Source: Gemmatimonadaceae bacterium
GTDB lineage: Bacteria > Gemmatimonadota > Gemmatimonadetes > Gemmatimonadales > Gemmatimonadaceae
DNA length: 64,000 bases
Assembly: GCA_031409715.1 (NCBI GenBank)
Contig: JANNXU010000084.1
Coordinates: 63,704-127,703 of the forward strand
Direction of reading: 5' to 3'
In this document: piece after piece, positions 24,209 through 27,180 of the stretch
Layout: each line of letters starts with the position of its first letter
Position numbering within the stretch: position 1 is the stretch's first letter
The notes under the pieces: generated by a model
Told to the model about the DNA's origin: nothing
Seen by the model: only the letters and a program-made list of their open reading frames with translations
Database searches by the model: none
Made by a program: the position numbers and the translations under genes

Positions 24209-26866
24209 ATGCGTGACATCCGCGACCGATACCTCCCGCCCGACCCGGATGCCTTCCGGGAGGCGCGACCCGCCCGTGGGCGCGTCATCATCATCGCCCC
24301 CACCCGGGCCGCCTGCGAGACGATCGAGCTCGCCTTCACGCTGAACCTCCAGACGTACCTGGAGACGCACCACGGCACACGCCTCCGCGAACTGGCGGCC
24401 AGCGGGAAGGGCTTCGGGATCGTCGCCGGCACGGGCACGGGCAAGACGCTGGCGGTGCGCCCGATCGCGGAAACGATCCTCGGCGAAGCGCTGCGCGTCG
24501 GCGTGATCAACCGCGAGCGCGAGGCCACGCCGGAGACGCCACAGTGGAACGTGATCATCGTGACCACCGGCATCGCGCGGCGCTGGTTTCAGGACGGTGA
24601 CATCGACGAGCACGACACGGTGGTCGTGGACGAGATCCACCAGACCTCGGCCGAACTCGAACTGTGCCTGGCACTCGGCAAGCGGGCGCGCTGCCGCTTC
24701 ATCTGGCTGTCGGCCACCGTCGATCCGTCGTTCTACTCGCAGTATCTCGACAGCGGCGACGTGCTGGAGGTATACAGCTTCGACGAGGCGAAGAAGGCGA
24801 CGGTGGAGGTGCTGACGCGCAGTCCAGCCGACTTCCTCGACGACAAGTTCCTGAAGAAGGTGATCGCGGAGCGCCGCGGCGTGGCGATGTTCCTGCCGAC
24901 GCGCGCCGGCACGGAGGATGCTGCGCGGCACGTGCAGGAGAGCTACCCGAAGATCCACGCGCAGCACTACCACGGCGGTGAGCCGATCCGCGTGATCCGG
25001 CAGTATCTGGACGAGGGCGGTGTGCCCAAGCCGTTCTTCCTGTCGATGACGGCAGCCGGTCAGAGCGCGATCACGGTGCAGGGGCTGGACACGGTGATCA
25101 TCGACGACACGCGATTCACCAACATGGTCGACAAGGGTCGCAACGTGCTCACGCGCGTGCACCTGGGTGCGAACGAACTGCTGCAGATGGCGGGTCGCGT
25201 GCATGGACGCGTGGCGGGCGGACGGGTGTTCATCCTGTCCGATCGCCGCATCCCGTTCGAGCAGCTGCGGCCCGAGTTGCCCGAGTTCCAGCTGGCCGGC
25301 GACAGCGAGCGGGTGGCGATCACCTGCGCGGCGATCGGTGTGCGCGCCGACGATCTCGAGCTGCCGGTGCCGCTGGACAGGGTCGCCTACCGCCGCGCGG
25401 TGGCGCTGCTCGAGACGCGCAACCTCGTCGCCAACGGTCGCCTGACGGACTACGGCCGCGCTGTCGAGAAGATGCCGGTGGAGCGGCCGTGGGCCGAGCT
25501 GCTGGTGAACAGCGACGACGACCTGGTGCCCTACGTGGCGGTGATGAGCGGCGTGGAAAGCCTGCACAGGATGACGCGCGAGGATCGCAACCTGGACAGC
25601 ATGCTGATCCCGGGCAGCGACCATCTGACGGCGTACAACGTGTATGCCGAGGCGTTCACGAAGTACGGGTACGTGGGCACCGTGTATGGATTACCGCGCC
25701 AGCTCTTCCACGACGAGATCGCGGAGTGGGCGGAGGTGAAGGGCGTGCTGGTGAAGTCGCTGGAGGATGCGGCGCTGGCGATGGCGAGCGTCTATCGCTC
25801 GTTGAATGCGCCGTTGCCGACCGCGTTGCCGAGGGCAACCGAGGCGACGCGGGCGCGCTTCAGTGAGCTGCTGGCGCAGGTGATGCCGTTCGACCTCGTG
25901 ATCGACGAGGAGACGGCCTGGGGTGAGAGTGCGCGCGTGGGGAAGACGAGCGTCTGCGGGAGCTGGGGCGCGGTGGCGGGCACCCTGCGCTTCTTCGCCG
26001 ACCGGATGGGTATCCCGCGCGCGTCGATCGAGGGGACGCAGATCGCGCCGGCGCTGCTGCGGACGTTCGCGCACTACGGCGAGAGCACGCTGGCGTACGA
26101 CCCGCACAAGCGGCAGGGGCAGCTCGTGCGCACGCGGCGTGTGACGTACGGCGGCTTCGAGCTGGAACGCGAGACGGAGGTGCTTGGCGACTTCACGCCC
26201 GACGTGGCATCGCAGGCGCGCGACGTGCTGGCCGACGCGTTCGCGACGGAGCAGGTGCGCCATCCGGCCCTGGAGCGCAATCGTCCGATGGTTGCGGAGG
26301 CGCGTGAGGTATGGCGGCGCAGCGGCGGTGTGACTCGACGCGTGTCACAGGCCGATGTGGCGGCGTGGTATCGCGCGCGCATCGACGGTGTGGAGTCGGT
26401 GAATGACCTGAAGCACCTGCCGCTTCGGATGACGTGGGACGACTGGGTGTCACCGGAGGAACGAGCGCGCTATGAGGCGTTGCCGCACATGGTGAGCGTG
26501 CGGGATCGCCAGGTGCCGGTGGAATACGACGTGGAGGAGCGCGACGACGGCTCGCTGTTCGGCGTGGCGAAGCTGCGGCTGCCGGAGAAGCTGGCGCGCA
26601 CGCTGGTGACGGAGGAACTGCCGCCGTTCGACCGTCCGTACCGCTTCGTCGTGCTGCGTGGTCAGCGTGGCTCGGCGCGGGGTCGTACGCTGGACGAGTT
26701 GCAGGAGGCGCTGGATGCGCCGTGGATGCCGGACGAACTGGCGACGCTCGGTGACTCGTATGGCGCGCGGAAGGGTGGTCGTGAGCGAGCGCGCGAGGAG
26801 TACCAGCGGGGGAAGGAGCGACGGTCGGTCATTCCGCCCAGGAAGCGGGGCCGGAAGGGGCGTTAG
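24209..26866 (+). CDS. DEAH/RHA-type (HrpA/HrpB-like) helicase with an uncharacterised ~450-aa C-terminal region
   Basis: Motifs: AGTGTGKT (Walker A), VVVDEIHQ (motif II), LSATVD (III), QMAGRVHGR (VI-like). Length is 885 aa. Confidence 0.85.
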   Translation: MRDIRDRYLPPDPDAFREARPARGRVIIIAPTRAACETIELAFTLNLQTYLETHHGTRLRELAASGKGFGIVAGTGTGKTLAVRPIAETILGEALRVGVINREREATPETPQWNVIIVTTGIARRWFQDGDIDEHDTVVVDEIHQTSAELELCLALGKRARCRFIWLSATVDPSFYSQYLDSGDVLEVYSFDEAKKATVEVLTRSPADFLDDKFLKKVIAERRGVAMFLPTRAGTEDAARHVQESYPKIHAQHYHGGEPIRVIRQYLDEGGVPKPFFLSMTAAGQSAITVQGLDTVIIDDTRFTNMVDKGRNVLTRVHLGANELLQMAGRVHGRVAGGRVFILSDRRIPFEQLRPELPEFQLAGDSERVAITCAAIGVRADDLELPVPLDRVAYRRAVALLETRNLVANGRLTDYGRAVEKMPVERPWAELLVNSDDDLVPYVAVMSGVESLHRMTREDRNLDSMLIPGSDHLTAYNVYAEAFTKYGYVGTVYGLPRQLFHDEIAEWAEVKGVLVKSLEDAALAMASVYRSLNAPLPTALPRATEATRARFSELLAQVMPFDLVIDEETAWGESARVGKTSVCGSWGAVAGTLRFFADRMGIPRASIEGTQIAPALLRTFAHYGESTLAYDPHKRQGQLVRTRRVTYGGFELERETEVLGDFTPDVASQARDVLADAFATEQVRHPALERNRPMVAEAREVWRRSGGVTRRVSQADVAAWYRARIDGVESVNDLKHLPLRMTWDDWVSPEERARYEALPHMVSVRDRQVPVEYDVEERDDGSLFGVAKLRLPEKLARTLVTEELPPFDRPYRFVVLRGQRGSARGRTLDELQEALDAPWMPDELATLGDSYGARKGGRERAREEYQRGKERRSVIPPRKRGRKGR

Positions 26867-26982
26867 TCGGTGTGGCTCGACGGTCTCCACGAGCAACACG
26901 TTTCGTCGGTGTGGCTCGACGATCGTCGACAGCAGGACGCTTTGTCGGTGTGGCTCGACGATCGTCAACAGCAGAACGCGAA
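26866..26982. repeat. 39-bp tandem repeat x3 starting at the helicase stop codon
   Basis: GTCGGTGTGGCTCGACG(G/A)TC... begins at 26866, 26905 and 26944. The tail of the third unit merges into the A-type module. Confidence 0.9.
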
Positions 26983-27180
26983 GGCGCCAAGGAACTGAAA
27001 GGCGCAGAGGGTGAGGCGCGATACCCCGACTCCGGTGAGAGTCGGGGTATCGTCACGTTGGGGAACGGCAACAGCAACAGCAACAGCAACAGCAACAGCA
27101 ACAGCAACAGCAACAGCAACGGCAACAGCAACGACGAACTGCGTGACGCCAAGGCGCAACGCAACGCGGTCGGTGCGCAC
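26966..27180. repeat. Composite element: A unit, 12-bp-stem hairpin, hexamer microsatellite, B unit (all direct orientation)
   Basis: A unit: CAACAGCAGAACGCGAAGGCGCCAAGGAACTGAAAGGCGCAGAGGGTGAGGCGCG (26966-27020). Hairpin: ATACCCCGACTC-cggtga-GAGTCGGGGTAT (27021-27050). B unit: AACTGCGTGACGCCAAGGCGCAACGCAACGCGG (27137 onward). Confidence 0.85.
27064..27135. repeat. Hexanucleotide microsatellite, 12 units (8 consecutive perfect AACAGC)
   Basis: AACGGC (AACAGC)8 AACGGC AACAGC AACGAC. The unit count was cross-checked against the (TA)11 run in the translated ORF 27011..27205. Confidence 0.95.

Follow-up and report, generated by a model that had tools for sequence, protein, structure and literature searches.

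A 39-bp tandem triplication at the left junction of a dispersed intergenic module behind a helicase gene in a Gemmatimonadaceae genome

The stretch of 64,000 nucleotides from a Gemmatimonadaceae bacterium analysed here (the window) carries a helicase gene followed in the same direction by tetR, and the spacer separating them reaches 512 bp, as compared to 141-328 bp in 13 orthologous Gemmatimonadaceae spacers. The locus is composed of the following features, the strand being given where one is assigned.

24209-26866, plus strand: DEAD/DEAH-type helicase gene, 885 aa (open reading frame list, translation, Pfam PF00270).
26867-27222, plus strand: whole lineage-specific insert of about 355 bp, from the helicase stop to the conserved distal palindrome.
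26866-26904, plus strand: unit 1 of the array, head GTCGGTGTGGCTCGACG, tail GTCTCCACGAGCAACACGTTTC.
26905-26943, plus strand: unit 2, with a perfect 14-bp palindrome TCGACGATCGTCGA and the tail CGACAGCAGGACGC.
26944-26979, plus strand: unit 3, ending in the 14 nt (26966-26979, CAACAGCAGAACGC) with which the A module begins.
26966-27013, plus strand: A-type module of a multi-copy intergenic repeat family, core GAACGC-N-AAGGCGC.
27018-27053, plus strand: hairpin with a stem of 14 bp and one G-U pair and a 6-nt loop.
27064-27132, plus strand: microsatellite (AACAGC)11.5 with two AACGGC variants.
27137-27177, plus strand: B-type module AACTGCGTGACGCCAAGGCGCAACGC..GGTCGGTG, 87% identical over 27137-27166 to 13064-13093.
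27227-27240, no strand: distal operator-like palindrome GGACCGTTCGGTCC, native backbone outside the insert.
27292-27328, plus strand: canonical terminator-like hairpin followed by TTTTCC, native backbone.
27352-27365, no strand: proximal operator-like palindrome GGACCGAGCGGTCC, abutting TAGTTT-N7-GTG of tetR and conserved in orthologues.
27379-27996, co-directional with the helicase: tetR.

The borders of the spacer are inherited from a common backbone. Helicase orthologues of 884-885 aa all terminate at the same residue, so the position of the stop codon (TAG at 26864-26866) is ancestral, and a palindrome of the type GGACYG-NN-CRGTCC occupies a place equivalent to that of the distal palindrome in nearly all orthologous spacers, being degenerate in L002 and L052 and not made out in L001 or L059. 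Hairpins at positions equivalent to 27292-27328 are likewise present in orthologues; here this hairpin with its TTTTCC is the sole consensus terminator between helicase and tetR, and the helicase transcript is likely to end at it; the RNA-seq runs searched for this stretch included none containing it. The segment 27281-27295, considered as a remnant of an inverted microsatellite, was rejected as such by comparison with L048, where it belongs to the orthologous backbone.

Since the orthologous spacers are shorter and the 39-bp unit occurs in none of the 13 (the same being true for the hairpin and the microsatellite), about 355 bp, 26867-27222, are lineage-specific. DNA equivalent to the insert is absent from 12 of the 13 spacers, and an unrelated module-like insert of about 75 bp lies at the same site in L058. 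In the closest relative, L048 (helicase 94% identical), the distal palindrome is found 2 nt past the stop codon and the entire stretch is lacking from the first base after the stop; judged by this alignment, the module copy arrived after the split from that relative. No matches to the unit were found in about 240 kb of the relatives' loci. The insert is possibly flanked by an imperfect direct repeat that could be a target-site duplication, GGCGTTAG (26859-26866) and GGCGTTGGAG (27218-27227), noticed post hoc and in a single case. Resemblance by eye of the DNA behind the stop in L002, L051 and L053 suggested that the head of the units could be native post-stop sequence; this was rejected, for local alignments of the post-stop stretches of nine orthologues with units 1 and 2 were not significant relative to shuffles (p >= 0.1) with one exception, a 9-mer of L001 at a non-equivalent position.

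The A module belongs to a family with strictly intergenic, mosaic copies situated directly behind stop codons, each module consisting of an AAC/AGC-rich low-complexity head followed by the GAACGC-N-AAGGCGC core. Within the window it is 88% identical to 12940-12987, 75-86% identical to 7869-7916 and 90% complementary to 7971-8009, and in four freshwater-sediment metagenome runs A copies are present on about 8-12 other contigs per run at genome-like depth (11-16 in run X1, where the helicase contig has 12.2); their differences are not concentrated at third codon positions. Homology of the paralogues starts sharply at 26965-26967, to the left of which the flanks of at least eight copies are unrelated and mostly AAC/AGC-rich. 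Since the other copies begin to align at this very point, the last 14 nt of unit 3 represent the true head of the A module, as the initial annotation had proposed. To the left of one other A copy lies a flank that contains CGGTGTGGCGTGACTGTCGTC and agrees with the head of the units at 18 of 22 positions (shuffle p about 0.001); this head-like sequence is separated from its A module by 9 nt more than the head is at the present locus. One contig has an A copy flanked by CGGTGTGGCGTGACTGTCGTCGGGTTCGGG, and at locus 2 GTGGCGAC is equally far from the A module. The head may be more than plain flanking sequence.

Downstream of the A module the order hairpin, microsatellite, B module expected from the first reading of the sequence is confirmed, with one correction: the hairpin, described there as a 12-bp perfect stem at 27021-27050, is longer, pairing 27018-27032 with 27039-27053 through 14 Watson-Crick pairs and one G-U (-29.6 kcal/mol, z = -4.8). 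Runs X1, X3 and X4 contain a second version of it, in which 27023 A>G accompanies 27048 T>C and 27032 C>T gives a G-U, so that pairing is maintained. Intrinsic terminators combine a GC-rich hairpin with a T-run; this hairpin is followed by CACGTTGGGG with no T-run, and was dismissed as a terminator. Rfam gave no family at the gathering threshold, the only match with E<1 being that of the hairpin to sar RNA, which scores 26.7 bits where 43 are required. Logan contigs stop inside the microsatellite. A related B copy lies at 13261 on the minus strand. All four elements have direct orientation, and BLAST of the spacer against itself revealed no inverted A or B partner within it, in agreement with the initial annotation, the internal hairpin being the only minus-strand self-match of 26866-27300. 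Inverted pairs of the family are found at 7858-8021, 12940-13375 and 54185-54604.

In the array itself Tandem Repeats Finder recognizes 2.9 copies of a 39-bp unit over 26866-26979 (86% matches, score 156), and the 17-mer GTCGGTGTGGCTCGACG recurs exactly at 26866, 26905 and 26944, a match count reached by no shuffle of the window; both the recurrence claimed earlier and the start of unit 1 on the last base of the helicase stop are thereby upheld. Each unit joins 25 nt of non-A DNA to the 14-nt A head, that is, on the alignments described above, it straddles the left junction of the module. The 17-nt heads are 100% identical in the three units and every difference is confined to the 22-nt tails. 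Two of the 36 repeated positions separate units 2 and 3; between units 1 and 2 there are six substitutions and two indels, which amounts to 0 differences in the heads versus 8 events in the tails (p about 0.01 under uniform decay). The initial annotation saw a boundary duplicated and then decayed: duplication of the junction holds, while decay is not what such a distribution looks like. The three tails, said to form a graded series, have the sequences given for them, and that of unit 2 agrees with 12 of the 14 positions of the A head; the gradation may nevertheless be partly coincidental because 9 of 10 positions in the tail of unit 1 can likewise pair with the head of that unit (GTGTGGCTCG / CGAGCAACAC), a pairing not significant against shuffles.

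Several observations stand beside this description. Folding of the array is no better than that of shuffled sequence (z = -0.28), on which ground a structured RNA spanning it was rejected. CRISPR arrays consist of identical repeats of about 23-50 bp with unrelated spacers between them; here the conserved part is only 17 nt long and the intervening 22 nt are homologous to each other and to the A head, and this assignment was discarded as well. A copy of the 17-mer with two mismatches in the helicase coding region at 26324 was treated as a chance occurrence, its flanks having no match to the array.

The unit appears to be confined to this place. It is found nowhere else in the window, and in the four metagenomes (genome at 8-18x) no further contig reaches 80% likeness to it, so the initial annotation's own counter-case, a common independent repeat away from A modules, is not what these data contain. 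The array resides on exactly one contig per run, with 0 differences and no length variant, and no joints skipping 39 or 78 bp were detected in these runs of one study, which were searched as short-read unitigs with rare variants dropped. A scan for GTCGGTGTGGCTCGACGRTC in a contig collection from which the window's own genome is evidently absent yielded 42 single occurrences; most belong to Nocardia and Mycobacterium, Gemmatimonadota are not represented, no tandem arrangement is seen, and all were set aside as chance or coding matches without relation to the array. The literature searched held no description of such repeats in Gemmatimonadetes or Gemmatimonas.

Module heads are subject to tandem repetition at other loci too. 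At 34687-34760 on the minus strand there is a 19-bp array of four units, TACAGC....GCAGAACGC, running into the core GAACGC|AAAGGCGC, and its right breakpoint, just after GAACGC, is shared with the 39-bp array; by its sequence it shows the same amplification of a module head. A related array at 54299-54359 repeats 16 nt 3.8 times. Motifs of the form ACAGC / CAGAAC at module heads underlie each of the periods, 6, 16, 19 and 39 bp.

Taken as a whole, the array is best explained as a minisatellite formed in situ across the left junction of the element by two rounds of slippage or unequal exchange, and we assign to this entire account a probability of about 0.65. According to it about 355 bp of non-coding DNA would have been added to the spacer behind the helicase stop and ahead of the operator-like palindrome, as one unidirectional copy of a repeat family with about ten representatives in the genome. 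Because the unit spans the junction it must have been duplicated in place with A already present: once the copy had settled, a 39-bp segment comprising 25 nt to the left of A and 14 nt of A would have been tandemly duplicated twice, an older event splitting off unit 1 and a recent one giving units 2 and 3, which are indeed the most alike pair. Replication slippage or unequal exchange is the likely mechanism, which the repetitive module head may have favored, possibly together with stalling at the core or the hairpin next to it. The array would fall into the 3' UTR of the helicase if transcription reaches the terminator at 27292-27328. Identity of the heads counts against the account, since neutral decay after simple duplication does not predict it; concerted evolution by gene conversion within the array would explain it best, and selection on the head is also conceivable. 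Two more observations were counted on the same side, namely that the tail of unit 1 could also form the 3' side of a hairpin whose other arm is the head of this unit, and that the head-like flank of the other A copy could mean that the head is part of the element and not junction DNA.

The latter thought leads to the reading in which the head is the true left end of a longer element and the array a triplicated internal piece arisen before or during its arrival. Absence of the whole stretch from L048 beginning at the first post-stop base, the 18/22 flank with CGGTGTGGCGTGACTGTCGTC and the equally spaced GTGGCGAC of locus 2 are in its favor; yet the left flanks of at least eight other A copies are unrelated and homology starts sharply at 26965-26967, only contigs of this locus align to the head at >= 80%, and the one head-like flank is displaced by 9 nt, which leaves it an unlikely origin, if one worth keeping in mind. 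We are more sceptical about three selected functional sites, either direct repeats bound by a regulator or, within the helicase 3' UTR, an RNA-binding motif, with the tails as unconstrained spacers. Perfect conservation of the heads against variable tails (p about 0.01), the palindrome TCGACGATCGTCGA of unit 2 overlapping the head and the head-like sequence beside another A copy would suit such sites. However, the motif is missing from all 13 orthologous spacers and the roughly 240 kb of related loci, the metagenomes have no further copy at least 80% alike, a spacing of 39 bp makes about 3.7 helical turns, which would turn the sites toward different faces of the helix, the folding of the array does not exceed that of shuffled sequence, and concerted evolution of tandem repeats would produce the same pattern with no function involved. 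A little more doubtful still is amplification of module heads by an active site-specific process in place of random slippage, for which a core-bound protein stalling forks or nicking after GAACGC, or a dedicated recombinase, would be candidates; the common right breakpoint of the 39-bp and 19-bp arrays, the persisting identity of the 17-nt heads and the head-like sequence beside another A copy fit it.

Two further possibilities can be given hardly any weight. For a coding element, MIRU-like or reached by read-through, in which 13-codon in-frame units make a C-terminal extension or mini-ORFs, one may cite that 39 is a multiple of 3 and that 43 sense codons follow the TAG in the helicase frame before a TGA at 26996-26998. 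As the region is poor in T, all frames are nearly devoid of stops; GC is flat across codon phases (0.61/0.64/0.60 versus 0.70/0.46/0.89 in the helicase), the orthologous helicases end at one residue, and the unit is present at a single locus, unlike MIRUs. Read-through, a 123-aa ORF at 26872-27243 and minus-strand ORFs were rejected on account of the phase-flat GC and their absence from orthologues, and from composition and comparison the array is taken not to be translated. Equally remote is an artefact of metagenome assembly, for which nothing speaks beyond the general risk of repeats in metagenome-assembled genomes: separately assembled unitigs of four runs cross the whole array (26840-26990) with 0 differences, and the longest identical stretch common to the units falls short of 31 bases, so that a k=31 graph can resolve it.

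With head-to-tail units in the 10-100 bp range the array is a minisatellite in the usual sense, and the in-situ minisatellite reading invites comparison with bacterial VNTR loci. MIRU units, as reportedly described by Supply et al. in 1997, are dispersed at many intergenic loci and carry small ORFs that overlap the stop and start codons on either side. Shared with such loci are units of tens of bp in a spacer between co-directional genes, a unit length divisible by three, an array abutting a stop codon and a presumed origin by slippage or unequal exchange. The 39-bp unit differs in being restricted to a single locus, in being chimaeric, as non-family DNA is fused to the first 14 nt of a dispersed module, and in that no small overlapping ORFs are evident, GC by phase being flat; copy-number polymorphism typical of VNTR is not seen in the four metagenome assemblies of one study. 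MIRU loci of Mycobacterium tuberculosis have themselves been described as minisatellites (PMC3635867).

As for the modules, their apparently multi-copy, strictly intergenic and mosaic occurrence behind stops, with inverted pairs at other loci, resembles REP/BIME/REPIN elements of Proteobacteria, which are short imperfect palindromic extragenic units, numerous in a genome and often in inverted pairs, with a cognate RAYT (IS200/IS605-like) transposase. The copy described here differs by having no inverted partner and by AAC/AGC arrays with a GAACGC-N-AAGGCGC core in place of 35-40-bp imperfect palindromes, and we know of no sequence similarity between the two groups. It departs from MITEs in the absence of terminal inverted repeats. 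Satellite higher-order repeats, which evolve from microsatellites to minisatellites by slippage and unequal crossing-over, offer a parallel in nested periods, homogenised heads and the greatest likeness of the newest units; here, in distinction, there are only three units and 25 nt of non-satellite sequence have been captured.

Taken alone, the triplication is an ordinary bacterial minisatellite with no function assigned. The intergenic repeat family of Gemmatimonadaceae to which it is attached is apparently undescribed, and to our knowledge almost nothing is known about genome dynamics in this phylum. If the species is cultured or sequenced with long reads, the array and the (AACAGC)n run would provide strain-typing markers and could be used to gauge repeat instability. 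Should the active process prove true, the family would represent a new self-expanding, gene-end-targeting bacterial satellite or mobile element. The value of the locus lies in a dated snapshot of how this repeat family grows: the point of arrival of a module copy would be exactly delimited, by the stop codon on one side and a conserved operator-like palindrome on the other, and module heads would serve as hot spots of tandem amplification with a recurring breakpoint.

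The DEAD/DEAH-type helicase (885 aa) belongs to an uncultured Gemmatimonadaceae genome, has Gemmatimonadaceae MAGs and Roseisolibacter as its closest named relatives, and terminates with TAG at 26864-26866; since orthologous helicases comprise 884-885 aa, the position of this stop is ancestral. The helicase-to-tetR spacer behind it spans 512 bp vs 141-328 bp in 13 orthologous spacers compared (among loci L001-L004, L048-L053 and L058-L061 of related genomes). The orthologues have a backbone in common: a GGACYG-NN-CRGTCC-type palindrome on the distal side, then a terminator-like hairpin, and a second palindrome, the proximal one, adjoining the tetR start. 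The A and B modules, parts of a multi-copy intergenic repeat family, and their relatives were confirmed.

Features of the helicase-tetR spacer and module cores of the window
26966-27013, A module, relatives at 7869-8009 and within 12940-13093
27137-27166, B module, relatives within 12940-13093
27227-27240, distal palindrome, backbone
27292-27328, terminator hairpin, backbone, sole consensus terminator in the spacer
27352-27365, proximal palindrome, backbone
7877, 8002 (minus strand), 12948, 13071, 13261 (minus strand), 26974, 27144 and 34690 (minus strand), cores GAACGC-N-AAGGCGC

The distal palindrome is recognisable in most orthologous spacers, being degenerate or unclear in a few, and stands 2 nt after the stop in L048, the closest relative (helicase 94% identical). 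Given this position and the shortness of the orthologous spacers, about 355 bp (26867-27222) can be attributed by comparison to lineage-specific DNA, that is, to an insert of a family copy, and neither the 39-bp unit nor the hairpin nor the microsatellite occurs at this site in any of the 13 relatives. One relative, L058 (GCA_020851035.1), carries in direct orientation a different module-like insert of ~75 bp (12670-12735, CAGCAACCGCAACGAC..GAACGC..AAAGGGGCGCGAAGGGGCGC) at this same position, after the helicase stop and before the distal palindrome, so occupation of the site is recurrent. An imperfect direct repeat, GGCGTTAG (26859-26866) and GGCGTTGGAG (27218-27227), spotted after the fact, possibly flanks the ~355-bp insert and could represent a target-site duplication or insertion microhomology. 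As for the backbone itself, the proximal palindrome is kept in 13/13 orthologous spacers and the distal one near the stop in most, usually with the terminator-like hairpin between them; both are probably TetR autoregulatory operators.

Tandem Repeats Finder delineates the array at 26866-26979 (period 39, 2.9 copies, 86% matches, score 156), and the 17-mer GTCGGTGTGGCTCGACG recurs exactly at 26866, 26905 and 26944, with a match count in the window equalled in 0/100 window shuffles. The triplication and its beginning on the last base of the helicase stop, both noticed initially, are thereby confirmed, and the array fits the minisatellite definition. Each unit joins 25 nt of non-A DNA to the first 14 nt of the A module. 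Unit 3 departs from unit 2 at two of 36 repeated positions, both G/A changes; between units 1 and 2 there are six substitutions and two indels that compensate each other. This near-identity of units 2 and 3 beside the more diverged unit 1 indicates two or more duplications that differ in age, an older one that set unit 1 apart and a recent one from which units 2 and 3 arose. The unit 1 tail still agrees with the A head at 9/13 positions in register (our count). It is also complementary to its own head at 9/10 positions; folding of unit 1 (z = -1.0) and of the whole array (z = -0.28) was no better than that of shuffled sequences.

The stretch is contained in four freshwater-sediment metagenome runs of one study (X1-X4), where Logan contigs were examined. 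In each run one contig spans 26840-26990 with 0 differences, and contig joints skipping 39 or 78 bp were absent from all four, which makes an assembly artefact extremely improbable as the source of the triplication. The A module is matched by about 8-12 further contigs per run, A-bearing contigs having depth near that of the helicase contig (11-16 vs 12.2 in X1; 14-19 vs 18.3 in X4). All these further alignments start at 26965-26967 or at 26975, which fixes the left boundary of A precisely where it was initially assigned. No other contig of the four runs is ≥80% like the 39-bp unit, so a common repeat independent of adjacent A modules was not encountered; a 20-mer scan of a genome collection lacking the source genome returned single unrelated matches alone, mostly in Nocardia and Mycobacterium. 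Because the A junction had to exist before being copied, sequence evidence places the tandem triplication in situ, across the left junction of the insert.

Left flanks of other A copies are unlike the unit head and mostly AAC/AGC-rich. In three runs, contigs of 1.1-1.7 kb at genome-like depth hold one other copy whose left flank, CGGTGTGGCGTGACTGTCGTCGGGTTCGGG, agrees with the head plus the bases after it at 18/22 positions (shuffle p about 0.001), and in locus 2 GTGGCGAC stands about equally far from the A module there. These occurrences lend some credit to the head belonging to the element as an optional left portion with little conservation, which we nevertheless consider rather unlikely. 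Resemblances of the unit to the orthologues' post-stop DNA failed shuffling tests. Within the helicase coding region, 26324-26340 (GGCGGTGTGACTCGACG, same strand) resembles the 17-mer head at all but 2 positions; its flanks differ, and the match is probably due to chance.

The initial annotation, largely right in its reading, proposed that the boundary was duplicated and then decayed; in-place duplication across the boundary stands, and decay describes it incompletely. The 17-nt heads are identical in all three units and every difference is confined to the 22-nt tails, the chance of which under uniform decay is about (22/39)^8 = 0.01, or, by our estimate, a few per thousand with the unit 2 vs unit 3 differences added. 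Either gene conversion homogenises the heads or selection acts on them. Homogenisation of repeats by gene conversion is usual in tandem arrays. Selection would agree with the 17-mers being functional sites, and the confinement of differences to the tails speaks for it, although we hold such a role to be improbable.

Head amplification is a property of the repeat family, judging from the arrays of the window and from hexamer arrays with related cores in other spacers of relatives (L002:2412-2556, L003:687-761, L004:19604-19708). Every module core in the window is preceded by AAC/AGC-rich tandem sequence. On the minus strand at 34687-34760, four 19-nt units TACAGC....GCAGAACGC lead straight into a core, the last unit providing its GAACGC; these units share their topology and their right breakpoint, just after GAACGC, with the 39-bp array. 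A related array of 16-nt units (CGCAGAACGGCACAGC, x3.8) lies at 54299-54359. What is special to the 39-bp array is solely the capture by its unit of 25 nt from outside the head. In co-directional spacers the AAC-rich strand of unpaired module copies is, in 4/4 cases, the sense strand for the gene whose end lies immediately upstream (this locus, L058:12670-12735, L004:19604-19708, L001:12357-12385). Palindromic copies reside mostly between convergent genes, with an exception at 34526-34689 of the window; a convergent spacer of a relative (L003:18770-18835) contains an inverted repeat of 22 bp, CCTCTGCGTCTTTGCGACCTTG / CAAGGTCGCAAAGACGCAGAGG, together with A-like motifs.

Downstream of A, the hairpin is present and longer than initially described (27018-27053, 14 Watson-Crick pairs and a G-U, -29.6 kcal/mol, z = -4.8), followed by the (AACAGC)11.5 microsatellite at 27064-27132 (Tandem Repeats Finder). 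Self-BLAST of the spacer gives a minus-strand match for the hairpin alone, in keeping with the claimed lack of inverted partners for A and B. A second version of 27013-27048 in X1, X3 and X4 combines the compensatory pair 27023 A>G and 27048 T>C with 27032 C>T, giving G-U, so pairing is preserved. In X3 a single contig of 1,997 nt contains this version together with the end of the helicase and the 39-bp array, and after 27081 runs on for 381 nt unlike the window; the version represents either an allele or a paralogue. Rfam yielded no family at threshold, the sole match with E<1 being a sub-threshold sar RNA on the hairpin, and no RNA-seq runs containing the stretch were found.

Being T-poor, the insert is open in all reading frames. 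Its codon-phase GC is flat (0.61/0.64/0.60, overall 61.5%) vs 0.70/0.46/0.89 in the helicase, so this measure gives no coding signal, and a MIRU-like coding element is hardly credible here; the array also departs from MIRU in dispersal and in overlap with ORFs. The surrounding family behaves like REP/BIME extragenic repeats, the copy at this locus differing in lacking their palindromic organisation, and no description of such repeats in Gemmatimonadetes was found in the literature searched. The array may lie in the helicase 3′ UTR, since the only canonical terminator is downstream. The units would have been generated by slippage or by unequal exchange, favoured by the repetitiveness of the head and perhaps by stalling at the core or hairpin, and gene conversion would keep their heads identical. 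We regard the 39-bp array as an ordinary by-product of repeat instability.
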